Shown piece after piece: positions 9,970 through 36,126 of a stretch of 55,114 nt of DNA. The DNA lies in the NCBI GenBank assembly GCA_937991975.1, contig CALKLC010000123.1, forward strand, positions 1-55,114, read 5' to 3'. Every line of letters starts with the position of its first letter. The stretch's first letter is position 1. The translations under genes and the position numbers were made by a program. The DNA is from an uncultured Spirochaetales bacterium (GTDB lineage Bacteria; Spirochaetota; Spirochaetia; DTKZ01). The notes under the pieces are model-generated. The model had not been told where the DNA came from. It made no database searches and saw nothing but the letters and a program-made list of their open reading frames with translations.

Positions 9970-10914
9970 CTACTCCCACACGGGCTGTAACCAGTGGAGA
10001 TAGTCTTTATCTTTCCCCAGTACAATAGAGCGGTAAGTCTCTGCGATGCGTTTTGTTATAGGGCCTATTTCACCTGAGCCAACAGGGATACGGTCTACCG
10101 ATGCTACCGGCATAATCTCCCAGCCTGTGCCCACAAAGAACACTTCCTCCGCTACATAGAGCTCTGTTCGGTCTACAGGCCTTTCCACAAACTCCAAACC
10201 CAAACGAGGCTTACAGAACGCAGCGACTGTATCCCGGGTAATGCTCTCTAAAATACCCGAAGTTACGGGCGGAGCGATAACCTTTCCATCCCGCACCAGC
10301 AGGAGGCAGGCCCCCGGCCCCTCGGTAACTTTTCCTGCATCATCCAGCAGAATCGGCCAGTCATACCCGTTTACCGTTGCCTCCATGGCGGCTAGTCGTC
10401 CATTGTGGTAGTTGGAGAAACATTTTAACCGGGGAGGCATTATATGGTCTGAAATACGAACCCAGGAGCTGACCCCCACATGGAGGGCTTTATCCATGGA
10501 TTGGTACGCTTCAAAAGGCCAGGAGTCTATAACCAGCTCGGTCGGTTTCCCAGGTTGAGGCTGGAGAAGCTCCCGAACCATCCCTTTCTGAAACACATAT
10601 GGTCGAATGTAAACATTCTGTCGGTACTTGTTTGCCCTCAGAAGATCTATCACTGCTTGTTCCAATTGTTCGAGCGTATAAGTGAATCCATACCGTACCA
10701 TCCGGATGGAAAAAAGGAACCGTTTCATATGATCTTTGAGTCGGAACACGTAAAGCTGCTGCTTTTCCTCGTTCCAATAGGCTTTAATTCCTTCGAATAT
10801 CCCGGCTACCGAAGCGTGCCCCACCGCATTTACATGTATCAACGCATCTTTCCAGGGCAGTATTTCCCCGTTTCTCCAGATAAACTCTGCAATGTCTTCT
10901 TTGTAGATGGCCAT
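9970..10914 (-). CDS. ilvE: branched-chain-amino-acid-type aminotransferase (PLP class IV)
   Basis: GIFEGIKAY, YIRP, catalytic K in PPRLKCFSNY, EGPG, ILESITR, EVFFVGT. Confidence 0.85.
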   Translation of the reverse strand: MAIYKEDIAEFIWRNGEILPWKDALIHVNAVGHASVAGIFEGIKAYWNEEKQQLYVFRLKDHMKRFLFSIRMVRYGFTYTLEQLEQAVIDLLRANKYRQNVYIRPYVFQKGMVRELLQPQPGKPTELVIDSWPFEAYQSMDKALHVGVSSWVRISDHIMPPRLKCFSNYHNGRLAAMEATVNGYDWPILLDDAGKVTEGPGACLLLVRDGKVIAPPVTSGILESITRDTVAAFCKPRLGLEFVERPVDRTELYVAEEVFFVGTGWEIMPVASVDRIPVGSGEIGPITKRIAETYRSIVLGKDKDYLHWLQPVWE

Positions 10915-10948
10915 AACCCCTCCTGAATGATTCTTTGAATAGACTTAC

Positions 10949-10970
10949 GTGGTGCCAAAATTGTGGCACC
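10949..10970. repeat. 22-bp hairpin element GTGGTGCCAAAATTGTGGCACC, copy 1
   Basis: GGTGCCA/TGGCACC stem; identical copy at 29364-29385. Confidence 0.8.
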
Positions 10971-10984
10971 CCTATTCAAGAAAA

Positions 10985-11980
10985 TTAATAAAGATGGCAG
11001 GAAACCCAATGATTGGGTGCTGTCATCCGTTCTTCCGGATACACTTCGTTACATATTTCCATGGCGTATGGACAGCGCTCATGGAAATGACAACCCGAAG
11101 GCAGGTGCAGAGGGCTGGGAATTTCGCCCTTTATAGGAGGTGTATGCTCCAGGTTTTTGCCCTCCAGCCTGGGGATAGAGTTAAGCAGAGCGATGGTGTA
11201 GGGATGTTTGGGGTTGGAAAACACATCCTGCTTTCTCCCTTTTTCCACAATTTTCCCCAGATACATGATTCCCACATGATCACTGATGTGTTTTACCACC
11301 GCTAAATTATGAGCGATGAATAAATACGAAAAATGAAACTCTTTTTGCAGGTCCATCATTAAGTTCAAGATCTGTGCTTGGATAGATACATCCAGAGCAG
11401 AAACAGGCTCATCCGCTATGACAAACTGAGGATGGACAGAGAGGGCACGGGCAATTCCGATCCGCTGCTGCTGACCTCCGCTGAACTGGTGGGGGTACCG
11501 GTTTGCCTGCTCCGGCCGGATACCGACCTTTTGAAGGAGATCCATAGCCATTTCCGTTGCCTGTGATTTTGTATCCGCCAAACGGTGAAAGAGAATCGGT
11601 TCACGGACTATATCCAGCACCCGACTTCTAGGATTCAAAGAAGCATACGGGTCTTGAAAGATCATCTGCATTTGTTTGCGTAAAGGCAGCATTTCTTTTT
11701 TTGAGAATCGGGTTATATCCATCCCCTGGAACAGAATCCGGCCCCCTTTTGGTTCCAGTAGCTTTATGATGGTTCTAGCGGTAGTTGATTTACCGCAGCC
11801 CGATTCCCCTACCAGGCTGAACACGGTACCTCTTGGGATTTCAAAGGAAACCCCGTTTACAGCGTGTACCCGGAGGGTTTCCCGAATGAACCTTCCGTTT
11901 TGAAACGTAAGTTCATCCAGTAGTCCTTTGCCCACACGAAAACTTTGGATTAAATTTTCCACCAATAGAATATTTTCCAT
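10985..11980 (-). CDS. dipeptide/oligopeptide-type ABC transporter ATP-binding subunit (DppF/OppF-like)
   Basis: GESGCGKST, FQDPYASLNP, FSGGQQQR, oligoHPY tail with GCHFHERC. Confidence 0.92.
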   Translation of the reverse strand: MENILLVENLIQSFRVGKGLLDELTFQNGRFIRETLRVHAVNGVSFEIPRGTVFSLVGESGCGKSTTARTIIKLLEPKGGRILFQGMDITRFSKKEMLPLRKQMQMIFQDPYASLNPRSRVLDIVREPILFHRLADTKSQATEMAMDLLQKVGIRPEQANRYPHQFSGGQQQRIGIARALSVHPQFVIADEPVSALDVSIQAQILNLMMDLQKEFHFSYLFIAHNLAVVKHISDHVGIMYLGKIVEKGRKQDVFSNPKHPYTIALLNSIPRLEGKNLEHTPPIKGEIPSPLHLPSGCHFHERCPYAMEICNEVYPEERMTAPNHWVSCHLY

Positions 11981-11983
11981 AGA

Positions 11984-12964
11984 CTACGAATCCTTCCAGA
12001 GCGGGAAAAAGCAGAGAGCTTTTCGGCCTTTGGGTCCCTCGAAAAGGGGTGGTTCCTCCTGCGTGCATATGGTTTGGCAGCGGGAACACCGATCGGCAAA
12101 CTTGCAACCCTGCGGAAGTTCGAACATGTTCGGTACTATCCCTGGTATAGGTTCCAGCCTGGACTTTTCTTGTTCGATGTCGGGAATAGAACGCAAAAGT
12201 CCTTCGGTATACGGATGCGCAGGATTATGAATGATATCTTTGGTATCTCCCGTCTCTACTAATTTTCCACAGTACATTACCATAACCCGGTCTGCAAGTT
12301 CGGATACTACGGCTAAATCATGGGTAATAAGAATCAACGCGCATCTTGTTTCTTCCGACAACTTTTTCATTAATTTCAATATTTGAGCTTGAATCGTGAC
12401 GTCCAGCGCTGTGGTAGGCTCATCGGCAATAATCAAGTCAGGCTGTGATGCGAGAGCGATAGCGATGATTACCCGCTGTCTCATGCCGCCGCTGAATTGA
12501 TGGGGGTAATCAAGAAGCCTTTTTTCTGGATTAGGTATTCCCACCATGGAGAGCAACTGGATACATTTCTGCTTTCTTGCCTCTTTTGTCAAATTTTGAT
12601 GAATAATTAAGCTTTCCTCCAGCTGGTACCCCACGGTGAATACAGGGTTCAAAGAAGTCATGGGATCCTGGAACACCATAGAAATTTCTTTCCCGCGGAT
12701 AGATTGCAGGTGCTGTTCAGAGGCTTTCAATAAATCGGTCCCTTTAAAAAGAATCTCCCCCCCTACGATCTTTCCCGGTTCTTCTATAAGCCTGAGGATG
12801 GAGAATCCTGTAACCGACTTACCTCCGCCCGACTCACCCACAATTCCCAATACCTCGCCCCGCCTTAACTCAAAACTAACCCCATCAACCGCTTTCACGA
12901 CCCCTTTAAGGGTAAAAAAGTGGGTTTGCAGGTTTTTTATTTCTAGCAAAACATCTGTACTCAT
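11984..12964 (-). CDS. dipeptide/oligopeptide-type ABC transporter ATP-binding subunit (DppD/OppD-like)
   Basis: [40 protein letters not shown]. Confidence 0.92.
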
Positions 12965-12968
12965 ACAT

Positions 12969-13859
12969 TCACTTCAATCTAGGATTTAACTGATCTCGGA
13001 GAAAATCCCCAAACAGGTTAATGGCAAACACTATGAACACTATGTACAATCCCGGGAAAAAGGATACCCACCATAAACCGCTATATAGGACAGAAAACCC
13101 CTCACTGCATAACATGCCCAGTGTGGGCCTTGTGGGAGGCACGCCTAATCCCAGGAAACTTAATGTGGCTTCCAGAAGAATGAACGTACCGATTTGAATG
13201 GTGGATAACACGATTACAGAGTTGAGTACATTGGGGAGCACTTGTTTCACCATAATGTACAGATCCGAATACCCGATAACTCGGGAAGCCTCTATATATT
13301 CTTTTTTCCGCACGGAGAGGGTTTCTCCTCTAACCACTCGAGCGTACCGAACCCAGCCTATTAGAGTGAGGGTAATAAGGATATTGGTGATGCTTCTTCC
13401 GAAGGTGGTCATAAGGAAAAGGGCAATGAGCATGCTCGGAAAGGAAAGCTGAATATCCGCAATTCGCATAATAATGGATTCAACCTTTCCCCCGATATAG
13501 CCGGCAACTAGACCGATCAGTATGCCGAAGGTTGCAGCAAAGAAAACCCCAGCTATCCCTATAAACAGTGAAACACGGCTTCCGTATACAATGGCACTCA
13601 GGATATCCCTTCCCTGCTGGTCTGTACCTAAAAGAAACCTGAGTTCACCTCCGTCAAGCCATGCAGGGGGCTTGAAGGCATCGGCCAGAAAAAGATTGGA
13701 AAGGGCATAGGGATTCTGCGGAGTAAGAAAAGGCCCTGCTATAGCCACAAGGATAACAAACAGGATCATGAGGGAGGAGACTATGGCTGTAGTGGATCGA
13801 CGATAATGATAGAAAAAGTCCGAGGCGAAAAATCTCTGCAGGATAGGAATACTTTTCAC
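12969..13859 (-). CDS. peptide-type ABC transporter permease (DppC-like)
   Basis: LGTDQQGRD, EYIEAS, LEATLSFLGLG. Confidence 0.9.
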   Translation of the reverse strand: MKSIPILQRFFASDFFYHYRRSTTAIVSSLMILFVILVAIAGPFLTPQNPYALSNLFLADAFKPPAWLDGGELRFLLGTDQQGRDILSAIVYGSRVSLFIGIAGVFFAATFGILIGLVAGYIGGKVESIIMRIADIQLSFPSMLIALFLMTTFGRSITNILITLTLIGWVRYARVVRGETLSVRKKEYIEASRVIGYSDLYIMVKQVLPNVLNSVIVLSTIQIGTFILLEATLSFLGLGVPPTRPTLGMLCSEGFSVLYSGLWWVSFFPGLYIVFIVFAINLFGDFLRDQLNPRLK

Positions 13860-13873
13860 CCGTGAGCCCCCCT

Positions 13874-14836
13874 CTACAACTCTACCCGCGGATCAATCAG
13901 GGTGTATATGATGTCTACCGCGAAATTGATGGCCACAAACAACACGGACACAAACAAAAGATAGGCCGACACGATAGGCCGGTCCAGATTCATGATCGAA
14001 TCTATCAGCAACTTGCCCATCCCTGGCCAGGCATAGATGGTTTCGGTTATGGTTGTAAAAGCAATTAGTTCTCCCAATTGCAGCCCAAAAATAGTCACTA
14101 CCGGAATCATGATATTTTTTAATGCGTGTTTAAAAAGGATATCTTTCTCTCCCACCCCTTTAGCCCGTGCAAACTTTATGTATTCCTGCCGCAGTGTTTC
14201 CATCATGCCCGCCCTGATCAACCGAATAATGGTGGCAATATTGATAACCGCCAGGGTAAAAGCGGGCAGAAACACGTGCCTCCATCCTTCCAGGGTGAAC
14301 AGGCTGCTCCGGATGCCTAGAAAAACTCCTGTTTCGCCCCTGCCGGATACGGGAAACCAGCCCAACCGCACGCTGAGAAAGAAGATAAACACCATACCGA
14401 TCCAAAAGGAGGGAAGAGAAATTCCCAGAATGGAAAAACCCATGATGCCTTTACTCAATTTCCGGCGTGGATAAGCCCCGGCATATACCCCTCCGCTGAT
14501 CCCTATCACTATTGTTAGGAGCATTGCCACAATTACGATTTCTAAGGTGGCTGGGAACCTGCTGAAAATGAGACGTAACGCCGGTTGATGATGTGTGTAG
14601 GACATCCCAAAATCTCCCCGCAGGGCGTTTCGAAGAAAGATGGCATACTGGTAGTACAACGGCTTGTCCAGGCCAAGCATTTTTCTAACCTGTTCCACCT
14701 GTTCCGGGGGAGCACGCTCGGGGAGCATGTTGTAAATGGGATTCCCTATAACGCTGGTGATAAAAAATACAATGGTAGAAACAATCAGAAGCACTCCTGC
14801 CATCTGGAGGAGCCGCTTAACTAGGTACTTCCACAC
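13874..14836 (-). CDS. peptide-type ABC transporter permease (DppB-like)
   Basis: GLDKPLY.QY, GDFG.S, ARAKG, ET.YAWPGMG, DPRV. Confidence 0.9.
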   Translation of the reverse strand: MWKYLVKRLLQMAGVLLIVSTIVFFITSVIGNPIYNMLPERAPPEQVEQVRKMLGLDKPLYYQYAIFLRNALRGDFGMSYTHHQPALRLIFSRFPATLEIVIVAMLLTIVIGISGGVYAGAYPRRKLSKGIMGFSILGISLPSFWIGMVFIFFLSVRLGWFPVSGRGETGVFLGIRSSLFTLEGWRHVFLPAFTLAVINIATIIRLIRAGMMETLRQEYIKFARAKGVGEKDILFKHALKNIMIPVVTIFGLQLGELIAFTTITETIYAWPGMGKLLIDSIMNLDRPIVSAYLLFVSVLFVAINFAVDIIYTLIDPRVEL

Positions 14837-14868
14837 AGAATACCGGTCCTTTCACTTCAAAATACAAT

Positions 14869-14909
14869 CCTCGCGGGCGCCCCACCAGGGGTTTTTCCGC
14901 CCCGCGAGG
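14869..14909 (-). terminator. GC-rich stem-loop after the ABC substrate-binding gene (stabiliser/partial terminator)
   Basis: CCTCGCGGG...CCCGCGAGG inverted repeat in the intergenic gap. Confidence 0.5.
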
Positions 14910-14922
14910 GAGTAATACCAGA

Positions 14923-16560
14923 TTACTTAGGGAAAGAAATGTCCCAGGCGTAAATGTGCTGATCGACCCTCGGTTTGTATATAATGTTCTGGCCATGCGC
15001 GTAAATCGCCGTTTCCCTGTGGGTTGTAAATAGGGCTACATCATCCCAGGCTATCTTCCAAACCTGCTGCATGATGGAATCCCGCTCCTTCGGGTCTACC
15101 GTAGCCAGCGCTTTTTCAATCAGTGCATCTACCTGTTCATTGGCGTAGTAGCCTCTATTTACTCCACCCCAGCCTTTCCGTTTGGGGGCATTAAGATAGG
15201 CACTGTACAGTAGATCCTTGGCTATCAGAGCGCTCTCGCCGCTGGGTTCTGACCAGGCACTCATAATAAAGTGACTCTTAAAACCTTCGTACATGCGGAT
15301 GTATCCCCAGAAAACCGATCGAGACATAAGGTTTACATTGCATTTGATTCCAACCTTTTCAAGATACCCTCCAATAGCTGTTGCAATGGCCGCGTCGTTG
15401 ATGTATCGGTCATTGGTGGCATCTAAGGTGATTTCGAAGCGGTATCCATTCGCCTGGCGTTTATACCCCGCAGCATCAAGCAGCTGTTCTGCTTTGGCTG
15501 GATTATACTCGTATTTCTTCAGATTCGGATTGTACCCATTGAATCCTTCAGGTACGGGGGTATGGGCGACAACTGCGTATCCTCCCATAATTTTTTCAAT
15601 TATTTCTTTTTCATTTACCGCATGTACAATCGCCTGGCGGACCTCCCGAACCGATAGAGGATTCGATCCATCGGGAGATTTGATCGGCATCGGTGCATTG
15701 GGGCTCGGGTTTTGCTTTGTCTGCCCCATGGCGAACATCATGGTGCTGATTCCAGGCTCTGTGAGAACTTTAACCCCGCTCCTTGTTTTCAGCATATCCG
15801 CATCCCGCACAGGAACATTGGTAATCAGATCTACCTCCCGGGCCATTAGACTAGCCGTCCTTGTCCCAGCCTGTGGAATAGGCCGAAACACCACCCGTTC
15901 GATCTGCGGTTTTTCTCCCCAGTAATCTTCGTTCCGTACCAGCACCAGACGATCATCCTTTACATACTCTGCCACTTTATACTTTCCCGTACCCACTATG
16001 GTGGTTTCCATGGCTTCCGGCCCTTTACCTTCTAAGGTTTCTTTACTGACTATGGCAATGTTCCTCAGGTGGCTGGGCAAAAGCACATCGGGGACAATAG
16101 TAGTAATTTCAACGGTATAATCATCTACAGCTCTCCAACTTTTGAAGTTGCCCAGAGCGTCGGCCCAACCCCTGCCGTCCGCCTTGCAAACATCAAAGGA
16201 ATACACCACATCTTTTGCTGTAAAGGGCTTGCCGTTATGAAACTTGACGCCCTGTCTGAGTTTTATGGTCCACACACTGGCATCCTTATTGGGGGTCCAG
16301 GAGAGGGCTAACCCCGGCGACGCGCTGAGATCGTTGTTCACATAGATAAGTGTCTCAAACACATGCCTCTGCATCGAGTTTGAGATAACTTCGTTGCGGC
16401 TGAAGGGATTCCAGGTTGTTACATCCCCAGGCATGGCAATGGTAACCGACTTGGGTTGGGCGGCTTTGGGGGCTTCCTGCTTGCCGGCGCCAAAAAGCGT
16501 GCCTGCAACTCCAAAGACAATCAGAAGAAACACCCCGCCCCCATGCATTTTTTTCTTCAT
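14923..16560 (-). CDS. ABC transporter substrate-binding protein, family 5
   Basis: signal peptide, LRQGVKFHNG.PFTAKDV, GTG.YK, RNEDYWG. Confidence 0.92.
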   Translation of the reverse strand: MKKKMHGGGVFLLIVFGVAGTLFGAGKQEAPKAAQPKSVTIAMPGDVTTWNPFSRNEVISNSMQRHVFETLIYVNNDLSASPGLALSWTPNKDASVWTIKLRQGVKFHNGKPFTAKDVVYSFDVCKADGRGWADALGNFKSWRAVDDYTVEITTIVPDVLLPSHLRNIAIVSKETLEGKGPEAMETTIVGTGKYKVAEYVKDDRLVLVRNEDYWGEKPQIERVVFRPIPQAGTRTASLMAREVDLITNVPVRDADMLKTRSGVKVLTEPGISTMMFAMGQTKQNPSPNAPMPIKSPDGSNPLSVREVRQAIVHAVNEKEIIEKIMGGYAVVAHTPVPEGFNGYNPNLKKYEYNPAKAEQLLDAAGYKRQANGYRFEITLDATNDRYINDAAIATAIGGYLEKVGIKCNVNLMSRSVFWGYIRMYEGFKSHFIMSAWSEPSGESALIAKDLLYSAYLNAPKRKGWGGVNRGYYANEQVDALIEKALATVDPKERDSIMQQVWKIAWDDVALFTTHRETAIYAHGQNIIYKPRVDQHIYAWDISFPK

Positions 16561-16588: not shown

Positions 16589-18070
16589 CTAATAATGGAC
16601 TGCCCGCCAGAGATTTTTTGGCAAGCCGGCCATTCCCTCAAACCCCAAACGCTGTAAAGCTTTCCAGGCCTCTTCCTGACTTTGCATTAATACCTGTTCT
16701 TGATTGATATGAGGAATCTTTCTATTCCGCATGACCATCTTTCCATCCACCAGCACTGTATCCACATCAGAGGGGTACGCCTGGTATACTACCCGCAGAG
16801 GTTCCTGCCACAGGGGGTATAGATGCGGTTTTTGTACATCTATCAGTACCAGATCTGCCTTTTTCCCTACTTCGATCGAGCCAATCTGGTCCTCTAACCC
16901 CAGAGCCCTGGCTGCATGAATCGTTACCATCTCCAAAGCCTTCCCCGCGGGAAGCAGTTCAGGGTCTTTAAAATGCACCCGCTGAAGGCGGATCCCTACT
17001 CGCATTTTTTCGAATAAATCGTACGTTCTATCTGGTGCACTTGCATCGGAACAGAAGGTTACATTGCAGCCTGCATTCAGTAACTCTATAACAGGACAGC
17101 GGTTTAAAATGTAGGCGGTGGTACAGGGGCCGGAGCACACAGAAACGTTCTTCTGTGCCAGGATATTTACTTCTTCGCTGGAGATCCCTGTACAATGGGC
17201 TAAAGAGAGGTTTGGACCCAATAGAAAAGGAAAATGCTGCTGAGCAAAGAGGATATCTCCACCGTAGGAATGCCCGTGAATGGGCACCCCGTATTCTTCG
17301 GAAAGACGAAATACCTCTTTATGTTGAAAAATATGCTCTTCAAGGCTCAGCCCCTCCCTCTTTCCCACTCCCGAGGGAGTTGGGTAGCAAAGGATTCTTC
17401 CGTTGTAACACGAACGATACCGCTTGACGGCTTCTTCTGTTTTTGACAGGGCCTCTTTATGCGTGAGGGAGTATTCCTTGTATGTAGTATTGTTTTTCCA
17501 GATACGAAAGGTTTTTGGATAGGGCGGATTCGGGGGTCCAACCCCCAGAATATCCCGTATACCCACTTCTGCCATAGCCTCTACATGGGCGTCCCACGAT
17601 TCTGGATCGTCAAACCGGGGGTAGGAGCCAAACATGCTGAGGCCCGTGGTAATTCCTGCCTGGATTTTTTCTAGACCGGAAAGATAGGCTTCTGCTTTCC
17701 AGAACTCCGGCGTGGTGCCCTGGAAATACAGACGCTCCATCATGCTGTCCCAGCTGTCCCTCATGCCAGCTCCACCTTCGCCCAGCGTTTTCGTGAGGCC
17801 ATGACCCGCATGGGCATGGGAGTCAATAAGACCAGGAATTAAAACATTCCCCCTGCCATTTATAATGCGATCTTCTTGAAAGGAGTCTTTTGGGAAAGGG
17901 CAATCGGTCAAAGTCCCCACATACGCGATGGTAGAGCCTTTTACTACCACACAGCCGTCTTTCAGAACTCTTCTATCGCGGTCTAAAGTAATGATTGTAC
18001 AGTTTGCTATAAGGAGAGAATCCCTCTCTTCTTGATCTGGTTCTATACGGTCCGCATGGTAGCACGCCAT
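16589..18070 (-). CDS. metal-dependent amidohydrolase (Atz/Trz/MTA-deaminase-like)
   Basis: PGLIDSHAH, AHC, SD, IGSIEVGKKADL. Confidence 0.85.
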   Translation of the reverse strand: MACYHADRIEPDQEERDSLLIANCTIITLDRDRRVLKDGCVVVKGSTIAYVGTLTDCPFPKDSFQEDRIINGRGNVLIPGLIDSHAHAGHGLTKTLGEGGAGMRDSWDSMMERLYFQGTTPEFWKAEAYLSGLEKIQAGITTGLSMFGSYPRFDDPESWDAHVEAMAEVGIRDILGVGPPNPPYPKTFRIWKNNTTYKEYSLTHKEALSKTEEAVKRYRSCYNGRILCYPTPSGVGKREGLSLEEHIFQHKEVFRLSEEYGVPIHGHSYGGDILFAQQHFPFLLGPNLSLAHCTGISSEEVNILAQKNVSVCSGPCTTAYILNRCPVIELLNAGCNVTFCSDASAPDRTYDLFEKMRVGIRLQRVHFKDPELLPAGKALEMVTIHAARALGLEDQIGSIEVGKKADLVLIDVQKPHLYPLWQEPLRVVYQAYPSDVDTVLVDGKMVMRNRKIPHINQEQVLMQSQEEAWKALQRLGFEGMAGLPKNLWRAVHY

Positions 18071-26977: not shown

Positions 26978-27001
26978 CCATAAGGAACAATTGCCATTTT
27001 G

Positions 27002-28228
27002 ATGAGGGAGATTTTTTCCATACAACCCCAACATACGCCACCGGAGGCATCCCCACGAAAGATCGTGGAAGAGGGACTGCGAAAACCTCTGGGATCTCCC
27101 CCCATCGAAGAGTTGATCCATCCAACCGATTATGTGTGCATACTCATTGATGACATTACCCGCCCAACTCCCCAGAAAGTGTTACTCCCTCCTCTATTGG
27201 ATGTACTTAAAAAGTGCGGAATTTCTGATTCTCATATCACCTTTCTTATCGCTCTCGGAACCCACAGGCCTATGAATCTAAAGGAAATCGAACAACATGT
27301 AGGATCTGAAATTGCGTCTCGATTTACCATCAAGAATCATGAGTGGGATAATCCTGATGCTCTTTTTTTCGCAGGAACCACGCCTGGAGGAACTCCGATC
27401 TATGTGAACCGTTTATTAAAGGAGGCCGATTTCTCCATCGGTGTTTCCAGTGTTGTGCCTCATGCCCAGGTCGGCTGGGGGGGCGGATCAAAAATAGTAC
27501 TGCCTGGTGTAAGTGGCGCAGAGACCGTAGGCGCCATGCACCTTTTCGCTGCCTCCCTTCCTGGGTATCCAAGGTTCGCGGGGCAGGTAGATACTCCTGT
27601 TCGAGCTTTGATCGAAGAGATCGGCCGAAAGGCAGGACTTTCCTATATCGTAAATGCTGTTTTTAATGCCAGCTACGAGCTGATCCATGTGGTTGCCGGC
27701 GACCCTGTATCAGCCCACCGTCAAGGGGTTCAACTAGCTCATGATATCTTCATTCGGCCCATACCTGACCTTGCCGATGTCGTCGTTGTAGACGCGCATC
27801 CCGCGGACCTTGAGTACTGGCAGGGACTAAAACCCCTAACCCTTGGACATTTAGCCGTAAAGAAAGGGGGAGTCCTTATCCTTCAGGGGAGATTCCCCGA
27901 AGGGATAAGCCGTACACATACGGAACTCTCCCGGTATGGGAAATTATCCAGAGGGGAACTTGACCAGGTGGTGAAAGAAGGGCTTTTAAAGGATGGGGCC
28001 TGCATAGGGGCTCTCTACCAGCATATCCTTGTCCGGGAACATTGCGCCGTATTTTGTGTATCTGAGGGGTTGACTCCCCATATGTGCGACAACCTTGGTT
28101 TTGAATATTATCCTACTGTAAAAAAAGCCCTGGATGAGGCAAAGCACCGACTTTCAGCTGGGGCAACAGTTGGATGGATTCATGAGGGAGGGGAGACCGT
28201 CCCGGCGGTTATTGAGCAAAAAAACTAA
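27002..28228 (+). CDS. larA: LarA-family nickel-pincer-dependent 2-hydroxyacid racemase/epimerase
   Basis: DDITRPTP, ALGTHR, PH..GWGGGSK...PG and downstream His match LarA active-site positions. Confidence 0.85.
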   Translation: MREIFSIQPQHTPPEASPRKIVEEGLRKPLGSPPIEELIHPTDYVCILIDDITRPTPQKVLLPPLLDVLKKCGISDSHITFLIALGTHRPMNLKEIEQHVGSEIASRFTIKNHEWDNPDALFFAGTTPGGTPIYVNRLLKEADFSIGVSSVVPHAQVGWGGGSKIVLPGVSGAETVGAMHLFAASLPGYPRFAGQVDTPVRALIEEIGRKAGLSYIVNAVFNASYELIHVVAGDPVSAHRQGVQLAHDIFIRPIPDLADVVVVDAHPADLEYWQGLKPLTLGHLAVKKGGVLILQGRFPEGISRTHTELSRYGKLSRGELDQVVKEGLLKDGACIGALYQHILVREHCAVFCVSEGLTPHMCDNLGFEYYPTVKKALDEAKHRLSAGATVGWIHEGGETVPAVIEQKN

Positions 28229-28251: not shown

Positions 28252-29352
28252 ATGGGAGAAACTGTGTACTTTCGGCCTGAAGATTTAACTTCCTACATCG
28301 AGCGGTTTTTTATCACCTATAAGGTACCCCAAAATCATGCAAAACAGATTGCGGAGGTCATTACAGAAGCAGATCTGCGGGGTGTGCATTCCCATGGGAT
28401 ATCGCGTCTCCATGTGTACTATGGGGACAGACTACGGGCAGGGCTGATGGATCCTGCTACGCCGTATAAAGTACTCAGTGAAACGGAAACAACCATCCGG
28501 TATGACGGCGGGAACGGCTTCGGCCAGGTGGTGGGTATTGCCGCCATGGAAAAGTGTATCGAAAAAGCGAAAATCCATCAGGTGGGAATAGCCACTGTCT
28601 GCAATTCCAACCACTATGGAATCGCCGCCTATTATTCGATGATGGCTCTCCCCCACGGGATGATAGGGATCAGCATGACCAATTCCCAGCCTTTAGTTGC
28701 CCCCACGTACGGACGGGAACGAATACTGGGTACAAATCCGATTTCTGTAGCGGCCCCTGCCCATAGGAGGAAACCTTTTGTACTGGATATGGCCACAAGT
28801 ATTGTTCCCATGGGGAAAATTATGCTGGCGGAAACAAAGGGAGAAACAGTCCCTCTCGGGTATGGAATCAATGCAAAAGGGGAGTTAACTCAGAATCCAA
28901 CCGAAATCCGGAACGGAGGCGCTCTTTTGCCCCTTGGGGGCCCTGATTATTTATCCGGATATAAAGGGTACGGGTTAGCCCTTTGGGTGGATATTCTCTG
29001 CGGCGTACTGGCTGGAGCGGCTTTTGGCAAGGATGTGGGCAGCCCTGTAGCCACATCCGGAACTCCCACGAACATCGGCCATTTCTTTCTGGCATTAAAC
29101 ATACAGGCTTTCCGCGATCTCTCCGATTTTACCCGGGACATGGATGCTTTGATTGAACAGCTAACCAGCTGTCCTAAAGAACCGGGGAAAGAGCGGATTT
29201 ACATCCATGGGGAAAAAGAGTTCGAGCAAAAAGAACGGTATTTGAAGGAGGGGGTTGCCCTGCCCGTAGAAGTTGTAGAGGTACTTCAAAAGAAAGGGAA
29301 GGAATCGGGGGTCCCGTTTGATTTAAGGCCCCTTCATTCTAAAGCAGGTTAA
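28252..29352 (+). CDS. Ldh_2-family (type 2 malate/L-lactate/sulfolactate/ureidoglycolate) dehydrogenase
   Basis: ADLRG.HSHG, SNHYG, GTNPI, LDMATS, GYKGYGL, IHGEKE. Confidence 0.88.
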   Translation: MGETVYFRPEDLTSYIERFFITYKVPQNHAKQIAEVITEADLRGVHSHGISRLHVYYGDRLRAGLMDPATPYKVLSETETTIRYDGGNGFGQVVGIAAMEKCIEKAKIHQVGIATVCNSNHYGIAAYYSMMALPHGMIGISMTNSQPLVAPTYGRERILGTNPISVAAPAHRRKPFVLDMATSIVPMGKIMLAETKGETVPLGYGINAKGELTQNPTEIRNGGALLPLGGPDYLSGYKGYGLALWVDILCGVLAGAAFGKDVGSPVATSGTPTNIGHFFLALNIQAFRDLSDFTRDMDALIEQLTSCPKEPGKERIYIHGEKEFEQKERYLKEGVALPVEVVEVLQKKGKESGVPFDLRPLHSKAG

Positions 29353-29385: not shown

Positions 29386-29387
29386 TC

Positions 29388-30656
29388 TTAAATTGATTCT
29401 TCCAGGCAGATTTGCCGGGCTGCCAGGAATAGGGCTTGTACCCCCTTATTGACCGCCTCGGGCTCACACCATTCCTCCGGTGTATGACTGCGACCCCCTT
29501 TGCAGGGAACAAACAGCATTCCCACCGGTGCCAGGGAAGAGATCTGATTCATATCATGGCCGGCCCCGCTGGAGAGTTCCATCCAGCGGGGAGTAAGAAC
29601 AGCTGCAACTTCCTTTAAAACTCTCTGTAAGCCCGGATCTGTCGCGATGGGAGGGGATGTGGAGAGAACCTCCATAGATAGGGGTACCCCTCTCCTTTCT
29701 CCTATCTGTTCTGCCTGCTGTCGAATCGATTGGGTTAAGGCGTCGAGGGTATCTACCTGCAGGCTTCTAATTTCTGCGAAAGCTTCTACTCTTTCTGGAA
29801 TAACGTTTGCCGCATTCGGATACACAGTGAGTTTTCCTACCGTTCCCACAAGGGGTTCAGGGTCGATCGTAATAGCCATTCTTTTACAGAGAGTTTCTAG
29901 GACCAGTACGAGCTCTGCCATGGCGGTTAGAGCATCCTTTCGGTATGCCATGGGGGTGGTTCCCGCATGATCCGCCCGTCCATGGGCTATGAACTTTATT
30001 CTGCGGATTCCCACTATTCCCTTTACAACGCCTAGATCTTTTCCGTTTGATTCCAGTACAGGCCCCTGTTCGATATGCAATTCTAGACCCCCGAAAATAC
30101 TGGCTGGTTTCCAGGCAGCTTTTGCAACCAGGATAGAGTCTCCGCCTGCGGAATCGATCGCTTCCGCAAGGGTGCGGCCGTTACTGTCCCGCCGCTCTAA
30201 GGCGTCTACAGGCAAAGTACCGGCCATGGCTCGGCTTCCAATGGTAGAAATTCCGAACTCTGTAGGCTCTTCAGCCGTGAAATCCACAACGATAAGTCCC
30301 CTTAAGGGAGAAAGGCTGTGCAGTGCCTTCGCAACCTGAATCCCCCCCACAACACCCAGCACCCCATCAAACCGCCCCCCCTGCAATACCGTGTCAGTAT
30401 GGGAACCTAGGAGGAGGGGCGGTAACGTAATGTCCTTTCCAGGCAAGAAGCCCAGTAAGTTCGCTGCCGGGTCTTGCTTCACTTCCAGACCCGCATTCTC
30501 CATCCATTGTTTTACCAGTTGCCTCCCCTGATTGTATGCGGGTGTAAAGGCCCGGCGTGTCCACCCTGGAATATTTTTTTCCCGGATTTCGGATAATTCC
30601 ATGATCTGTTTAAAGGCATCCGGAAAGTTGGGCAGAATGGTTGGGTTCCTATGCAT
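29388..30656 (-). CDS. M20 Zn-dependent N-carbamoyl-L-amino-acid/allantoate-type amidohydrolase
   Basis: GSHTDTV..GG.FDG, EE, ELHIEQG, HAGTTPM, SGAGHD, SH.PEE. Confidence 0.88.
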   Translation of the reverse strand: MHRNPTILPNFPDAFKQIMELSEIREKNIPGWTRRAFTPAYNQGRQLVKQWMENAGLEVKQDPAANLLGFLPGKDITLPPLLLGSHTDTVLQGGRFDGVLGVVGGIQVAKALHSLSPLRGLIVVDFTAEEPTEFGISTIGSRAMAGTLPVDALERRDSNGRTLAEAIDSAGGDSILVAKAAWKPASIFGGLELHIEQGPVLESNGKDLGVVKGIVGIRRIKFIAHGRADHAGTTPMAYRKDALTAMAELVLVLETLCKRMAITIDPEPLVGTVGKLTVYPNAANVIPERVEAFAEIRSLQVDTLDALTQSIRQQAEQIGERRGVPLSMEVLSTSPPIATDPGLQRVLKEVAAVLTPRWMELSSGAGHDMNQISSLAPVGMLFVPCKGGRSHTPEEWCEPEAVNKGVQALFLAARQICLEESI

Positions 30657-30712: not shown

Positions 30713-30760
30713 TTGACAAAATAGGAATCCTGGGGTAAAAATAAATGGAATACTGTTCCA
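30713..30760 (+). promoter_or_regulatory. promoter (TTGACA-17-TAAAAA) with IclR-type operator TGGAATACTGTTCCA
   Basis: perfect TGGAA-N5-TTCCA palindrome at 30746-30760, at the predicted start site. Confidence 0.65.
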
Positions 30761-30781: not shown

Positions 30782-32926
30782 ATGGCAAGTTCACTGTTCC
30801 CAGATCTGCATCCTATGATGGAACCTGCATCTATCGCTGTAATTGGCGCTAGCGAGAACCGGGGGCCGGGAAGGCAGGTATTGGAAAACCTGTTCCAGTT
30901 AGGATACGCGGGTAAGATTTATCCCATCAACCCGAAATACAGCAAAGTGCTGGACCTCCCCTGTTACCCGAGTATGCAAAAGGTGTACGAGGAGCAGGGT
31001 TCGGTAGATATGCTGGCAATTCTTTTGGGCAGGGACGCCATTCTTCCAGTATTAGAAGAAGCCGCCGAGGCAGGGGTAAAGGCTGCCTGGGCGTTTGCAA
31101 GCGGGTTTGCAGAAGCAGACGAAGAAGGGAAGGCATTGCAGCATAGGCTTACCGACTTTTGCAAGAAGCACCGTATCCTCTTTTGCGGTCCCAACTGTGT
31201 GGGATTCTTGAATCCGGCCAAAAAAACGGGTACCTACAGTGCGCCGGCTCCCAAGGAAATCCGTGCCGGGAACCTGGGGTTTGTCGCCCAAAGCGGGTAC
31301 GTCTGTTTAGCCATGGCGAACTCCGGCAGGGGAATTGGGTTCAGCTCCATCTGTTCTTCAGGGAACGAGGCAGTGTTGGACGCTACGGATTACATGAACT
31401 ACCTGCTGGAACAGGAAGAGACGAAAGTTGTCGGCGGTTTTATCGAACAGTTCCGGTATCCGGAAAAGTTGATTCACCTTGCGCAAAAAGCCCGTGACCG
31501 TGGAAAACCTCTGGTGCTGATAAAAGTTGGAAAATCAACCCTGGCCAAACGAGCTACGGAAGCGCACACAGGGGCATTGGCTGGAGAAGATGATGTGCAG
31601 GATGCTCTTTTCGAAAAACTCGGAATTATCCGCGTACAGGATCTGGAAGAATTGTTTGAAACAGCCGAGCTGTGTATCAAATATCCTGTTCCCCCCTCGG
31701 GATCCAGAGTGTTTGCCTTTACCCTGTCAGGAGGTATCATCAGTCTCTTTGGAGACCTGGCAGAACCGGTAAGGTTGCAGCTCCCCCAGTGGTCCGATGA
31801 GGGCGTGCGGGAAGTAAAACAGCACCTTCCGCCCTATGCTTCTGTGTCCAACCCTCTGGATGCCTGGGGATACGGGAAGATCGAACAAACCTACCCCGCT
31901 TTTCTAAAAGCCGCTGCAAAAGAAGAAGCGGATGTCCTGCTAATTCTTCAGGACCTACCCCCTGGAATGGCGAAACCTCAGGTGGAACAATACATGGTAC
32001 CGGTGCGAGCAGCCGCAGAGGTGTATGCCACTTATGGGAAACCGGTCATTGTGCTGAGCAATACCGCCTCTGGGCTTCATGAAGAACCCAAAGCGTATCT
32101 GGATAATGCAAAGGTGCCTCTCCTGCAGGGAACCCGACCAGGGCTTGCCGCTCTCGAGAAATGGCTAGAGTACGGGAAAAAACTCTCTACCCCCCTTCAA
32201 GTTACAGACTTATTCCCCCTTCGATCGAAGTCTCCGTCACCTTCATGGCTTTCGGAGTTCCCCAAGGGAGCCTTGTCTGAAGCCCGGTCCAAACAGCTCC
32301 TTTCCCGGTTTGAAATTGTATGTTCTCAGGAATACCTGTGTTCCTCTTTGGAGGAAACCCTACAGAGGGCGGAAGAGGTGGGGTACCCTGTGGTTCTGAA
32401 GGTTATGTCCCCGGATGTACCGCATAAAACCGAGGCCGGCGCTGTGGCGCTGGGGGTCCGGGGACCTGCTGAACTGAAGGAAGCATACAATCGTATCGTC
32501 ACAAACACGAAAACATACAAACCAACTGCACGGATCGAAGGAGTCCTCTGCCAGAGGATGATCGAACACCCTGTGGCCGAATGCTTCTGCGGAGTTCTTG
32601 TGGATCCTTCCTTTGGGCCGGCTATTCTGTTCGGTTTGGGCGGGGTATGGGTCGAGGTGTTCAGGAACCGGTCTGTGGGGATACCCCCCCTCACGATGCA
32701 TGAAGCCTATGAAATGATCCGGCGGACCTTCGTGTATTCCCTTCTTAACGGGTACAGAGGGCGGCCAGAAGGGGATATAGAAAGTCTTGCCCAGCTTCTC
32801 TGCAAGGTGGGAGACCTGGCTTTAACGCTGGGGAAAAACCTGCAGGCGTTAGATTTGAATCCTGTCCTTGTTCTTCCCAAAGGGCAGGGAGTGTATCTGG
32901 CAGATGCACTTATCATACTGCAGTGA
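30782..32926 (+). CDS. ADP-forming acyl-CoA synthetase (acetate-CoA ligase family, fused subunits)
   Basis: SIAVIGAS, GPNCVG, QSG, SGNEA, AHTGALAG (phospho-His), NPLD, ATP-grasp HKTE, LDLNP. Confidence 0.9.
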   Translation: MASSLFPDLHPMMEPASIAVIGASENRGPGRQVLENLFQLGYAGKIYPINPKYSKVLDLPCYPSMQKVYEEQGSVDMLAILLGRDAILPVLEEAAEAGVKAAWAFASGFAEADEEGKALQHRLTDFCKKHRILFCGPNCVGFLNPAKKTGTYSAPAPKEIRAGNLGFVAQSGYVCLAMANSGRGIGFSSICSSGNEAVLDATDYMNYLLEQEETKVVGGFIEQFRYPEKLIHLAQKARDRGKPLVLIKVGKSTLAKRATEAHTGALAGEDDVQDALFEKLGIIRVQDLEELFETAELCIKYPVPPSGSRVFAFTLSGGIISLFGDLAEPVRLQLPQWSDEGVREVKQHLPPYASVSNPLDAWGYGKIEQTYPAFLKAAAKEEADVLLILQDLPPGMAKPQVEQYMVPVRAAAEVYATYGKPVIVLSNTASGLHEEPKAYLDNAKVPLLQGTRPGLAALEKWLEYGKKLSTPLQVTDLFPLRSKSPSPSWLSEFPKGALSEARSKQLLSRFEIVCSQEYLCSSLEETLQRAEEVGYPVVLKVMSPDVPHKTEAGAVALGVRGPAELKEAYNRIVTNTKTYKPTARIEGVLCQRMIEHPVAECFCGVLVDPSFGPAILFGLGGVWVEVFRNRSVGIPPLTMHEAYEMIRRTFVYSLLNGYRGRPEGDIESLAQLLCKVGDLALTLGKNLQALDLNPVLVLPKGQGVYLADALIILQ

Positions 32927-34765: not shown

Positions 34766-34778
34766 CAGGAGTATAGGA

Positions 34779-35372
34779 ATGAAAGAGATCAATTTTTTAA
34801 TTCTCGGTGTAGGGGGGCAGGGAACGATCCTCGCGGGAGATGTGCTTTCCGAAGCAGGGATGGTGGCTGGATACGATGTAAAAAAGTCCGATATCCTGGG
34901 GCTGGCCATAAGGAGCGGGAGTGTTACCAGTTTCATCCGGTGGGGGACACAGGTGCACTCCCCGGTGCCGCCGAAAAACTCGATCGATTACCTCGTTGCC
35001 TTTGAACCCCTGGAAAGCCTTCGGATGCTGGATTATTTAAAGTCAGATTCAACCGTGATCCTGAATGAGTACAAAATTCCGCCTGTGGCCGTTTCCACCG
35101 GCCAGGCTACCTATCCGGCTCAGGAAGAGATCCTTCGGTACCTGGAGCAGAACTCTTCCCGCATTATCCGACTGAATGCCACGCAACGAACACAAGAGTT
35201 AGGGAGTGTCAAGGTGCTGAACATCTTCATGATCGGAGTCCTCGCTTCTCTTCTTCCCGTTTCACCGAGCGTCTGGGAAGCAGCTATTAAGAAATTCGCT
35301 CCCCCCAAATTCCTGGATCTGAACCTGAAAGCTTTTTACAAGGGTTACGAACAGTACGTAAAGGCAAAATAG
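34779..35372 (+). CDS. iorB: indolepyruvate:ferredoxin oxidoreductase subunit beta
   Basis: GVGGQG, GL..R.GSV, FEPLE.LR, N.KAF. Confidence 0.9.
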   Translation: MKEINFLILGVGGQGTILAGDVLSEAGMVAGYDVKKSDILGLAIRSGSVTSFIRWGTQVHSPVPPKNSIDYLVAFEPLESLRMLDYLKSDSTVILNEYKIPPVAVSTGQATYPAQEEILRYLEQNSSRIIRLNATQRTQELGSVKVLNIFMIGVLASLLPVSPSVWEAAIKKFAPPKFLDLNLKAFYKGYEQYVKAK

Positions 35373-35400
35373 ACGCCTGAACAATTATTAGGAGAATAGT

Positions 35401-36126
35401 ATGAAAATCATGGTGATCAATCCGAATAGTTCTGTAGAAATGACCCGGCATCTGGAAAAGGAACTGGTAAAAATCAAACGGCCGGACACTGAACTGAGGG
35501 TGGTATGCCCGGACTGCGGTCCCATTACCATTGAATCCAATTACGACGCAGTAATCGCGGCCTCCTGCATGCTCCCTCTGGTTAAAAAAGCGAATGCCGA
35601 GGGGTACGACGCCATTATTATCGCCTGCTTCAGCGATCCAGGGATTGAGGCGGCTAAGGAAGTGTCCGATATCCTGGTGCTAGGGATCCAGGAAGTGTCC
35701 CTCCATGTAGCAGCGATGCTAGGGGCAAAGTTTACCATCCTTACCCCCTTACAGAAGAGAGTTCCCGCTAAGGAGTATGAAGTGCGGCGGTACAAGCTGG
35801 AACAGGCCCTCGCTTCGGTTCGGCCTCTCGGTATGACCGTGGCGGAAACGGACGCCGATCCTGTCAGAACAAAGGAACGGATTCTAGAAGTGGCCAGGCA
35901 GGCAGTCGAGGAGGATGGGGCAGAGGTGATCGTGTTGGGATGCGCGGGAATGGTGGGATACGCAGAGGAAGTGGAAAGAAAACTGGGAATCAAAGTGCTG
36001 GATCCTTCTTCCGTAACCCTGAAAGTCTGCGAGGGAATGGTGGACGCGGGCCTAAAGCACGCCAAAAGAGCCTTCTACGCTACCCCCCCTGCAAAGCTCT
36101 TTAAAGGATCCCCTTGTAACGCATAA
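35401..36126 (+). CDS. hydantoin/allantoin racemase (Asp/Glu/hydantoin racemase family)
   Basis: MKI.VINPNSS..MT, IACFSDPG, LGCAGM (two catalytic Cys). Confidence 0.88.
   Translation: MKIMVINPNSSVEMTRHLEKELVKIKRPDTELRVVCPDCGPITIESNYDAVIAASCMLPLVKKANAEGYDAIIIACFSDPGIEAAKEVSDILVLGIQEVSLHVAAMLGAKFTILTPLQKRVPAKEYEVRRYKLEQALASVRPLGMTVAETDADPVRTKERILEVARQAVEEDGAEVIVLGCAGMVGYAEEVERKLGIKVLDPSSVTLKVCEGMVDAGLKHAKRAFYATPPAKLFKGSPCNA

Follow-up and report, generated by a model that had tools for sequence, protein, structure and literature searches.

What would lead a spirochete to keep hydantoin-cleaving enzymes beside an energy-conserving branch of amino acid fermentation, and do the two belong to one pathway? 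This question is raised by a 26-kb island at positions 9970 to 36126 of contig CALKLC010000123.1, from an uncultured Spirochaetales bacterium. The window, as we call the whole stretch of 55,114 nucleotides analyzed here, is contig C123 of a 2.63-Mb metagenome-assembled genome (MAG) with 222 contigs and 79% completeness (GenBank assembly GCA_937991975.1; G000 below). A preliminary description of the window had listed 22 island genes, and all 22 were verified at their coordinates and in their families from the listing of open reading frames (ORFs) and from Pfam and NCBIfam profile scans of the listed ORFs; for NCBIfam, the curated cut-offs in bits were applied. Our answer to the question is tentative, and we would give it somewhat less than an even chance: the island would be one catabolic system of separable modules, used by an anaerobe for the fermentation of a cyclic ureide, the likeliest candidate being a 5-substituted hydantoin or a close ring.

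Three of the genes encode candidate enzymes for the ring itself. Hyd (21483 to 22871, minus strand), an Amidohydro-family protein of the D-hydantoinase/dihydropyrimidinase type, is the first gene of a minus-strand operon that runs from 22871 down to 10985 and continues with the amidohydrolase AH_A, a VOC protein, the amidohydrolases AH_B and AH_C, a SBP_bac_5 binding protein (SBP5), two permeases, and two ATPases. Throughout this run, neighboring genes overlap or are separated by gaps of at most 106 nt, the largest lying between SBP5 and the first permease. M20 (29388 to 30656, minus strand) is of the N-carbamoyl-L-amino-acid amidohydrolase type (TIGR01879). The third enzyme, an Asp/Glu/hydantoin racemase (Race; PF01177; 35401 to 36126, plus strand), is encoded by the last gene of a plus-strand operon with intergenic gaps of 13 to 28 nt, in which it follows the genes for a fused alpha-beta ADP-forming acyl-CoA synthetase (ACD; Pfam; 30782 to 32926) and for IorA (TIGR03336; 32951 to 34765) and IorB (Pfam; 34779 to 35372) of an indolepyruvate ferredoxin oxidoreductase (IOR). 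The island had been described as one cluster; this stood as far as gene content is concerned, whereas the racemase proved to be separate from the hydantoinase, at the end of the ACD-IorAB operon, on the opposite strand and 12.5 kb away.

From this gene content we infer the following route. Race would interconvert the ring enantiomers, Hyd would open the ring to an N-carbamoyl acid, and M20 would remove the carbamoyl group as CO2 and NH3. The resulting 2-amino acid would be converted into a 2-oxoacid by an aminotransferase from outside the conserved gene set, for which IlvE is at hand; alternatively, the skeleton would pass through a 2-hydroxy acid by way of the LarA-like and Ldh_2 enzymes. TRAP, LarA, and Ldh_2 would also supply the corresponding free 2-hydroxy or 2-oxo acids. 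IorAB would then turn the 2-oxoacid into an acyl-CoA with reduction of ferredoxin, and ACD would form ATP. The right half of the island plus Hyd would be one IclR-controlled system, and Hyd-AH_A and VOC-AH_B-AH_C-ABC would be feeder modules that import a larger nitrogen-rich precursor and then trim or open it, on the model of SsnA and HyuA. The strongest links between the ureide and IOR/ACD halves, judged from gene order, appear to be the racemase within the IOR/ACD operon and, in metagenome contig L097, Hyd directly upstream of IorAB-ACD homologs.

The arrangement was found again outside the window. Metagenome contig L092 keeps the whole stretch between ACD and the second ATPase, both included, with 18/18 genes in the same order and 62 to 92% amino acid identity, and two further spirochete MAGs, G041 and G042, carry the gene set in rearranged form. 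In G042, contig C75 encodes DctPQM-Ldh2-DUF6282-ACD-IorA-IorB-Race-IclR on one strand, and on C25 Hyd is divergent from M20-nitroreductase-LarA. G041 has TRAP ... LarA-M20 divergent from Hyd on C23, while its C35 carries AH_B-SBP5-ABC and a second SBP5, followed by IorA at the contig end. In locus L177, the order ACD-IorA-IorB-Race is kept at 50 to 67% identity, and Ldh2 lies inside the TRAP-ACD-IorAB operon. LarA adjoins Hyd and M20 in L183, L184, and L093, and M20 is divergent from or adjacent to Hyd in the same three loci and in L096. The TRAP genes are 75 to 91% identical in L092 and 48 to 69% identical in G041/G042, where they adjoin Ldh2 or LarA. Because the full order recurs in L092 and the gene set is rearranged in two further genomes, the clustering is more than chance.

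We also compared the Hyd neighborhoods of the best 80 metagenome loci. Only seven of these, the metagenome contigs L091 to L097 (at least 46% identity to Hyd), carry island partners. Contigs in which Hyd is only 47 to 62% identical nevertheless place it beside M20, LarA, a racemase, or IorAB plus ACD: L093 reads M20-Hyd-LarA; L094 reads IclR-Hyd, with Race (56%) and then AllG, an oxamate carbamoyltransferase subunit, farther on; L095 reads VOC-Hyd-IorA-like; L096 reads DUF6282-MBL-M20 divergent from Hyd; and in L097 Hyd is followed directly by IorA-like, IorB-like, and ACD-like genes. In L091, AH_A is the sole island partner. Among the other 73 loci (34 to 39% identity), none had IorA, ACD, M20, or LarA at the thresholds used, and nine had a Race-like gene. 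DUF6282, which has no homolog in G000, is 54% identical between L177, where it lies inside the ACD operon, and L096, where it lies beside M20 and Hyd; as a component common to both, it links the ACD module and the M20/Hyd module once more. The sub-operons do co-occur elsewhere, then, in L092, G041, G042, and distant contigs. The joined hydantoinase and IOR/ACD scheme of the preliminary description gains from this recurrence, from the distant contigs, and from a common palindrome, but its aminotransferase step and its proposal that the three amidohydrolases feed the hydantoinase do not hold up as well (see below).

The candidate regulator is an IclR-family protein (HTH_IclR plus IclR_C; 22910 to 23722, plus strand) encoded divergently from Hyd, with the two start codons 38 nt apart and the gap conserved in L092. 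It reached no NCBIfam equivalog; an ortholog (78%) occupies the same place in L092, and a 43% homolog follows Race in L177. A promoter-like TTGATT-17-TATACT at 22875 to 22903 ends approximately 7 nt before the IclR ATG, which suggests that the IclR mRNA is leaderless. The genes that it may control in the right half are ACD-IorAB-Race, M20, and those for a TRAP transporter (DctM/Q/P; Pfam; 23748 to 26776, minus strand), a LarA-like 2-hydroxyacid racemase/epimerase (Lar_N; 26999 to 28228, plus strand), and an Ldh_2-family 2-hydroxyacid dehydrogenase (402.6 bits to Ldh_2; 28252 to 29352, plus strand). A palindrome of the form TGGAAT-N3-ATTCCA is present at both divergent promoter regions of this half, those of LarA and ACD. 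The first copy, TGGTATAGTATTCCA (26963 to 26977), overlaps the −10 of the LarA promoter (26942 to 26971, 11/12 matches), and the second, TGGAATACTGTTCCA (30746 to 30760), directly follows a promoter-like TTGACA-17-TAAAAT site before ACD. In L092, both are conserved at the corresponding positions. Across the 2.4 Mb of loci that were fetched, TGGWATNNNNTTCCA had three exact matches, two of them the L092 counterparts and one a perfect palindrome at the G041 DctP promoter. Related palindromes were seen in G041 in the M20/Hyd gap, adjoining Hyd, and 53 nt upstream of IorA; in G042, CGGAACATAGTTCCG is a related site after the −10 of the TRAP-...-Race operon. We take the palindrome to resemble the E. 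coli IclR box and IclR/AllR-type palindromes. Through this site, IclR probably acts as a repressor, at least of the LarA-Ldh_2 and ACD-IorAB-Race promoters and of the divergent TRAP and M20 genes, a pairing of regulator and operator that we infer from the sequences.

The TRAP genes contain a further element: dctP and dctQ are separated by a strong hairpin of 14 bp with a T-run (25645 to 25677, minus strand), which may act as a partial terminator giving an excess of the binding protein over the membrane parts.

What chemistry do the three ring enzymes support? Hyd narrowly missed the D-hydantoinase/dihydropyrimidinase model TIGR02033 (387.2 bits; cut-off, 393.25) and stayed below the allantoinase model TIGR03178 (299.3 versus 357.85) and the ErtD models (237.6 versus 650 and 223.5 versus 600). 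Its best solved relative is the D-hydantoinase 1nfg (283 bits), and its translation contains the motifs DAHTH (H66 and H68), SFKMF (K148), VHAEN (H182), PHIS (H238), and SDHAP (D311), which we take to form the binuclear metal site of HxH, carbamylated Lys, two His, and Asp. M20 passed the subfamily cut-off of TIGR01879, the hydantoinase/carbamoylase family amidases (351.5 > 204). Its best NCBIfam model is the N-carbamyl-L-glutamate amidohydrolase ErtE (NF058540; 483.6 < 520), the allantoate amidohydrolase model was missed (365.6 < 399), and its best solved relative is the L-carbamoylase 3n5f (291 bits). Race scored 177.1 bits to PF01177 (Asp_Glu_race) and matched no NCBIfam family at E ≤ 1e-5; it carries Cys76 (IIACFSD) and Cys181 (LGCAGM), presumably the catalytic pair of hydantoin racemases. 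Across the island, curated cut-offs were reached only by IlvE, IorA, and M20, the last with the broad subfamily TIGR01879, and no equivalog cut-off was reached for the canonical enzymes of purine, pyrimidine, allantoin, or ergothioneine metabolism.

These scores bear on the main rival to our reading, a ureide route of the allantoin/ureidoglycolate type. According to this alternative, Race would be allantoin-racemase-like, Hyd allantoinase-like, and M20 an allantoate or ureidoglycolate amidohydrolase; the product would be a 2-hydroxy acid that LarA racemizes and Ldh_2 oxidizes, as AllD does, and IorAB and ACD would replace oxamate carbamoyltransferase and carbamate kinase, so that an aminotransferase would be unneeded. 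The best solved relatives of Race are indeed allantoin racemases (3qvj, 142 bits; 5lfd, 131 bits), the second-best solved relative of M20 is a ureidoglycolate hydrolase (228 bits), Ldh_2 matches the ureidoglycolate dehydrogenase (AllD) models with 215.7 and 209.2 bits, and the IclR family includes AllR, to whose model the island regulator scores 97.8 bits. AllG after Hyd and Race in L094 points the same way, and the alternative accounts both for the company that LarA and Ldh_2 keep with Hyd and M20 (L183, L184, and L093) and for the want of a conserved aminotransferase. All of the allantoin-pathway models were missed, however. Hyd lies much nearer to the D-hydantoinase cut-off than to that of allantoinase, M20 fell short of allantoate amidohydrolase as it did of ErtE, and Ldh_2 fell far below both AllD cut-offs (356 and 496.2). 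Moreover, IorA passes the indolepyruvate model, and we know of no ferredoxin oxidoreductase for oxalurate or glyoxylate. On balance, we regard an allantoin-type ureide route as unlikely.

For fermentation of a 5-substituted hydantoin, the reading that we favor, the conversion of the amino acid into a 2-oxoacid is the least secure step, because no aminotransferase is conserved with the cluster. The class IV aminotransferase gene at 9970 to 10914 (minus strand), to which the preliminary description had assigned this step, encodes a protein that passes the ilvE equivalogs (NF005146, 291.4 > 279; TIGR01122, 267.4 > 245.55). The 79%-complete G000 has no other good copy, the next match being 27% identical. 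The 70-nt gap before it holds a promoter-like site at 10958 to 10930, and it is not beside the ABC operon in L011 or L012, both of the other genomes examined. To judge from these features, ilvE is probably a housekeeping gene with its own promoter, and its assignment to the route is weakened. LarA and Ldh_2 are regular neighbors of Hyd and M20, and this points to a 2-hydroxy acid as possibly the real intermediate, by analogy with allantoin, ureidoglycolate, and oxalurate chemistry. The LarA-like protein scored 179.1 bits to Lar_N and, as its best equivalog, 265.5 to malate racemase (cut-off, 500); Ldh_2 scored 257 to the sulfolactate dehydrogenase model (cut-off, 500).

For the later steps, IorA passes TIGR03336, the IOR alpha equivalog (659.3 > 650.9), and ACD has the complete architecture of CoA_binding_2, Succ_CoA_lig, and ATP-grasp_5; IorB and ACD fall below the equivalog cut-offs (see below). 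The hints to the side chain of the substrate conflict. Since IorA passes an indolepyruvate model, an aromatic side chain is suggested, whereas an acidic one is suggested by the best models of M20 (N-carbamyl-L-glutamate amidohydrolase) and LarA (malate racemase). The binding proteins offered no resolution: SBP5 and DctP had no close liganded relatives among solved structures, with best matches of 134.7 and 92.9 bits, respectively.

The candidate feeder modules center on three COG0402-type amidohydrolases. AH_A (Amidohydro_1/3; 19945 to 21486, minus strand) has a start that overlaps the end of Hyd by 4 nt; it is followed by the 132-amino-acid VOC/glyoxalase-fold protein (PF00903, 27.9 bits; 19560 to 19958, minus strand), the PRK06151-like AH_B (18107 to 19546, minus strand), and AH_C (16589 to 18070, minus strand), just upstream of which lies a promoter-like TTGACA-17-TAGTAT (18110 to 18082). 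The remainder of the operon is a whole Dpp/Opp-type ABC importer identified with Pfam (10985 to 16560, minus strand), made up of SBP_bac_5 (14923 to 16560), two permeases (13874 to 14836 and 12969 to 13859), and two ATPases with oligo_HPY (11984 to 12964 and 10985 to 11980). The importer is 67 to 93% identical and in the same gene order in L011, L012 (a locus of G042), and L092. The VOC protein, which reached no NCBIfam family, has orthologs of 68 to 75% identity in L012 and L092; it shows no detectable similarity to the VOC protein of L095, so that the recurrence there is at the level of the fold family only.

All three amidohydrolases have the Amidohydro_1/3 assignment and match Trz/Atz-type NCBIfam models below the cut-offs (AH_A to the SsnA model NF005540, 131.9 versus 444; AH_B to NF004801, 369 versus 416), and their solved relatives are remote COG0402 proteins at 117 to 151 bits, the best for AH_C being AtzA (4v1x, 151 bits). 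The metal ligands align in AH_A, AH_B, and AH_C as HGH, HCH, and HAH, then the later His residues, and finally GMDD, GTDS, and CSDA. The HxxE motif does not. Its glutamate is the proton shuttle of COG0402 deaminases and is kept in E. coli SsnA (HAAE) and GuaD (HLCE), as it is in the solved deaminase-type relatives of AH_B (3hpa, HLAE; 4f0r, HIHE; 7ww2, HLAE). AH_B has HGAQT instead, with Q238 invariant in 14 of 14 aligned family members; AH_A has HVQQT where SsnA has HAAE, kept in 3 of 3 aligned homologs; and in AH_C the region is deleted or replaced (HSYGG), likewise in 3 of 3. Because the glutamate is absent from all three, the proteins may be nondeaminases; its loss fits nondeaminase chemistry without indicating which.

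Members of the AH_B family with approximately 48 to 50% identity occur in many Alphaproteobacteria, mostly adjoining ABC-type transporters. Three Microvirga loci have the order Hyd-AH_B-Race-AH_B' beside another amidohydrolase and an amino-acid-type ABC system, an order that ties the AH_B family independently to hydantoinase and racemase families. The counts of AH_A (42) and AH_C (20) in 80 AH_B loci were left unused, being mostly cross-matches to AH_B itself. The Hyd-AH_A pair recurs in L091, L092, L185, and L186. Between L091 (6267 to 9264) and L092 (9924 to 12921), it has 91.8% DNA identity, and the similarity stops at the borders of the pair; as far as the sequences tell, Hyd-AH_A is a two-gene unit relocated between close relatives. 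In L185 (C55 of G042, 7098 to 11864) and L186 (C81 of G041, 3 to 8168), the pair is a paralogous AH_A'-Hyd2 beside pyrK, pyrD, pyrE, and pyrF: AH_A-like (45 to 46%) and Hyd-like (44 to 46%) genes lie directly upstream of pyrK/pyrD-like genes, followed in G041 by pyrE- and pyrF-like genes and a second DHO_dh-like gene. The HVQQT motif is retained. The pair may be a biosynthetic pyrC with an additional partner, or else a catabolic set.

The fullest version of the reading is an uncharacterized anaerobic route that is complete within the island. The Glu-less COG0402 branch and the VOC protein would open or trim an imported nitrogen-rich ring without a redox step to give a 5-substituted hydantoin; Race, Hyd, and the L-carbamoylase would free the skeleton; and IorAB and ACD would yield reduced ferredoxin and ATP, all within one IclR regulon. 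The imported ring might belong to the cyclic guanidines or imino-hydantoins (a glycation-type hydroimidazolone, for instance), or it might be a modified base or a peptide-like ureide. We consider this version doubtful, at about one chance in four.

Several observations weigh against a single catabolic system. L092, G041, and G042 are relatives from one lineage, and the evidence for the whole island is not independent. An AH_B ortholog was present in none of 40 sampled relatives of G000 (best match, 31% identity) and Race, at E ≤ 1e-40, in none of 200 other genomes sampled from the phylum, and the system is too rare in this sample for a phylogenetic profile or co-occurrence statistics. VOC-AH_B-AH_C-SBP5-ABC stands alone in L012, amid unrelated genes (NUDIX, thioesterase, PAS, and STAS), as does Hyd-AH_A in L091, amid efflux-pump and unrelated genes; the feeder modules are thus able to function, or at least to survive, away from the other island genes. 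The pyr-adjacent paralogs are, by analogy, a hint that the role of the AH_A/Hyd pair is related to pyrimidines and not to hydantoins. With regard to regulation, no operator-like site and no promoter were detected before the Hyd operon in the window. The palindrome was counted 7 times in the window versus 2.4 expected, with 4 of 100 shuffles reaching 7, and its relaxed form 14 times versus 11.3 expected; neither count is significant, and the operator case rests on position and conservation, not on count. As for the enzymes, the three amidohydrolases lack the HxxE glutamate of the compared deaminases and may have another chemistry; the only nearby aminotransferase is the housekeeping-type ilvE, which is not conserved with the cluster. 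IorB lies below the IOR beta models (204.2 versus 237, 201 versus 230, and 166.6 versus 205.8) and ACD below all named equivalogs (for example, 391.3 versus 1200 and 311.6 versus 567.15). A search for LarC (PF01969), the one LarA cofactor gene that was looked for and one that the cofactor requires, gave no match in the assembly, which is 79% complete.

Some of these points also speak for a second alternative, in which the island is a mosaic of unrelated modules joined by rearrangement and has no common substrate. Its parts would be a peptide-like importer with unusual hydrolases, a pyrimidine-related Hyd-AH_A pair, a fermentation unit for aromatic or other 2-hydroxy/2-oxo acids (TRAP-LarA-Ldh2 and IorAB-ACD), and a housekeeping ilvE. 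IorAB plus ACD is a common unit of amino acid fermenters. In keeping with a mosaic, two modules stand alone (L012 and L091), AH_A'-Hyd2 pairs lie in pyr gene clusters, the Hyd operon lacks a detectable operator in the window, and in 80 AH_B loci an ABC-type transporter was the main neighbor in 40 to 59, compared with Hyd in 4, Race in 3, M20 in 2, and IorA in 1. A mosaic explains less well why the ACD-IorAB operon includes, in two different arrangements, a racemase of the hydantoin/allantoin type, why Hyd homologs lie directly upstream of IorAB-ACD homologs in the distant contigs L097 and L095, why operator-like sites in G041 are found both in the M20/Hyd gap and at the promoters of TRAP and IorA, and why DUF6282 is common to both module types. 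A mosaic without a common substrate strikes us as improbable.

The third alternative, ordinary purine or pyrimidine catabolism on canonical substrates (by the 2,8-dioxopurine or the reductive pyrimidine route or by fermentation of orotate), is very unlikely: the families match (COG0402 hydrolase, hydantoinase/dihydropyrimidinase, and M20 decarbamoylase), Hyd comes close to the dihydropyrimidinase cut-off, and G000 carries homologs of YgeW (62%), YgeY (48%), and YqeA (49%) on other contigs, but SsnA is only 24.6% identical to AH_B and 23.6% to AH_A, and HyuA is 34% identical to Hyd, while the 79%-complete G000 contains no match to YgeX or XdhD at E ≤ 1e-10, no SsnA above the cut-off (TIGR03314, best 120.9 for AH_A and 114.8 for AH_B versus 455.5), and no PreA above the cut-off (best, 125.5 versus 335), and the island is without a molybdenum hydroxylase, flavin reductase, carbamoyltransferase, or carbamate kinase. 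Orthology to the standard enzymes of purine or pyrimidine breakdown, which the preliminary description had named as a finding that would undo it, was not seen at any equivalog cut-off in this 79%-complete assembly.

Other loci of these genomes hold genes of related families. In G000, the YgeY and YgeW homologs lie side by side (C120, 18284 to 21296, and C219, 4743 to 5606), with the YqeA homolog on another contig; C120 also carries a LarA paralog. On C114 of G000 (3 to 1568), an M20 paralog (33% identical to the island M20) lies beside a DHO_dh/PreA-like gene with an in-frame TAG, and this pair may represent a reductive pyrimidine set in remnant or variant form. In G041, L193 (C134, 3536 to 6308) contains three adjacent Race paralogs (44%, 63%, and 61%), one with an in-frame TAG, and a fourth is found on C117; neither contig carries another island gene.

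On one flank of the island, Race is followed by a trp leader and the trp operon. Between Race and trpE (36176 to 36339), MIVSINRNKSGWWWLNSPIPRTAPE is a small ORF with three consecutive Trp codons; it is preceded by a promoter-like stretch, TTGACA...TATTTTAT, and a GC-rich hairpin with a T-run lies at 36307 to 36339, so that the whole looks like a classical leader-peptide trp attenuator, as judged by its layout. Approximately five tandem copies of a 13-nt CAGGCAGAGAAGA-like unit (about 36343 to 36410) separate the attenuator terminator from the trpE start. On the other side, an ORF of 373 amino acids (7178 to 8299) without a Pfam or NCBIfam family lies upstream of thioredoxin and DUF454 genes. 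A scan of the whole window against Rfam at gathering thresholds returned only a tRNA (44155 to 44238) and no riboswitch.

The natural substrates of hydantoinase/carbamoylase/racemase sets are a long-standing puzzle, and the island, by wiring such a set to an energy-conserving fermentation branch and two importers, would offer a concrete physiological setting in which to search for them. The three conserved Glu-less COG0402 subfamilies, one of them widespread in Alphaproteobacteria, make good targets for the discovery of new functions. Should the feeder reading prove true, the island would represent a second anaerobic route from an N-heterocycle to ATP, unrelated in sequence to the 2,8-dioxopurine pathway; if it is false, what remains would still be a well-delimited putative IclR regulon joining ureide hydrolysis to 2-oxoacid oxidation.

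Among known systems, the closest is the reductive uric acid/2,8-dioxopurine pathway, of which the island looks like an uncharacterized cousin. According to the preprint account, the COG0402 protein SsnA forms ureidomethyl-hydantoin by ring cleavage, not deamination, HyuA opens the hydantoin, and M20 and carbamoyltransferase steps then lead to an amino acid and on to pyruvate (10.1101/2025.05.19.654654). The E. coli cluster xdhD-ygfK-ssnA-hyuA-ygeW-ygeY-ygeX-yqeA has the same families and logic as the island: rings are opened via a 5-substituted hydantoin, an M20 enzyme decarbamoylates, and an amino acid gives a 2-oxoacid, ATP, and a short-chain acid. Nevertheless, no island gene is orthologous to the enzymes of the E. 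coli K-12 cluster. XdhD, YgfK, YgeW, YgeX, and carbamate kinase are absent from the island (YgfK-like matches in G000 are partial, 26 to 36% identity over about 40% of YgfK, on C132, C37, and C81), SsnA keeps the HxxE glutamate that the island amidohydrolases lack, and energy would be conserved by IorAB plus ACD instead of carbamate kinase. The racemase, the LarA-like protein, Ldh_2, and the TRAP and ABC importers are additions of the island. The pathway had been put forward as a candidate undescribed one. This stands in that we found no paper, in a search of the main texts of the open literature, on a hydantoinase combined with IOR, ACD, or LarA; it needs qualification for the overall logic, since two preprints from 2025 describe an analogous anaerobic conversion of an N-heterocycle via a hydantoin and an amino acid to pyruvate by a COG0402 hydrolase, a hydantoinase, and decarbamoylases (10.1101/2025.05.19.654654 and 10.1101/2025.04.24.650524).

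The E. coli allantoin pathway offers family-level counterparts of Hyd, Race, M20, Ldh_2, and IclR. It is anaerobic and comprises AllB, AllC, AllD, AllFGH, and carbamate kinase under the IclR-type AllR. The island misses its models widely and has IorAB and ACD in place of oxamate carbamoyltransferase and carbamate kinase. Ergothioneine catabolism enters the comparison through the ErtE match of M20, which makes an acidic N-carbamoyl amino acid a possible substrate; the cut-offs of ErtE and of ErtD, the hydantoin-5-propionate amidohydrolase of NCBIfam, were missed, however, and the island has no ergothionase or thiourocanate hydratase. The hyu clusters of the "hydantoinase process," for example, that of Arthrobacter aurescens, consist of a permease, hydantoin racemase, hydantoinase, and L-N-carbamoylase. 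Three of these enzyme families are common to the island, as its nearest solved relatives (1nfg, 3n5f, 3qvj, and 5lfd) reflect. In the island, unlike in hyu clusters, Hyd, M20, and Race belong to three transcription units, with Race in the IorAB-ACD operon, and the set comes together with enzymes for ferredoxin-dependent oxidation and for 2-hydroxyacids and with three unusual COG0402 proteins, in a host whose MAG is of an anaerobe type. The combination of an aminotransferase, IOR, and ADP-forming acyl-CoA synthetase is the amino acid fermentation branch of Thermococcales and many anaerobic bacteria. The island resembles it in an IorA that passes the IOR alpha equivalog and an ACD of full architecture, and differs from it in that IorB and ACD are below the cut-offs, ilvE is not conserved, and the operon carries a hydantoin-type racemase. 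The families and the general logic were thus known already; what appears to be new, as far as gene content and order can tell, is the wiring of a hydantoinase set to IorAB-ACD, 2-hydroxyacid enzymes, and Glu-less COG0402 proteins.

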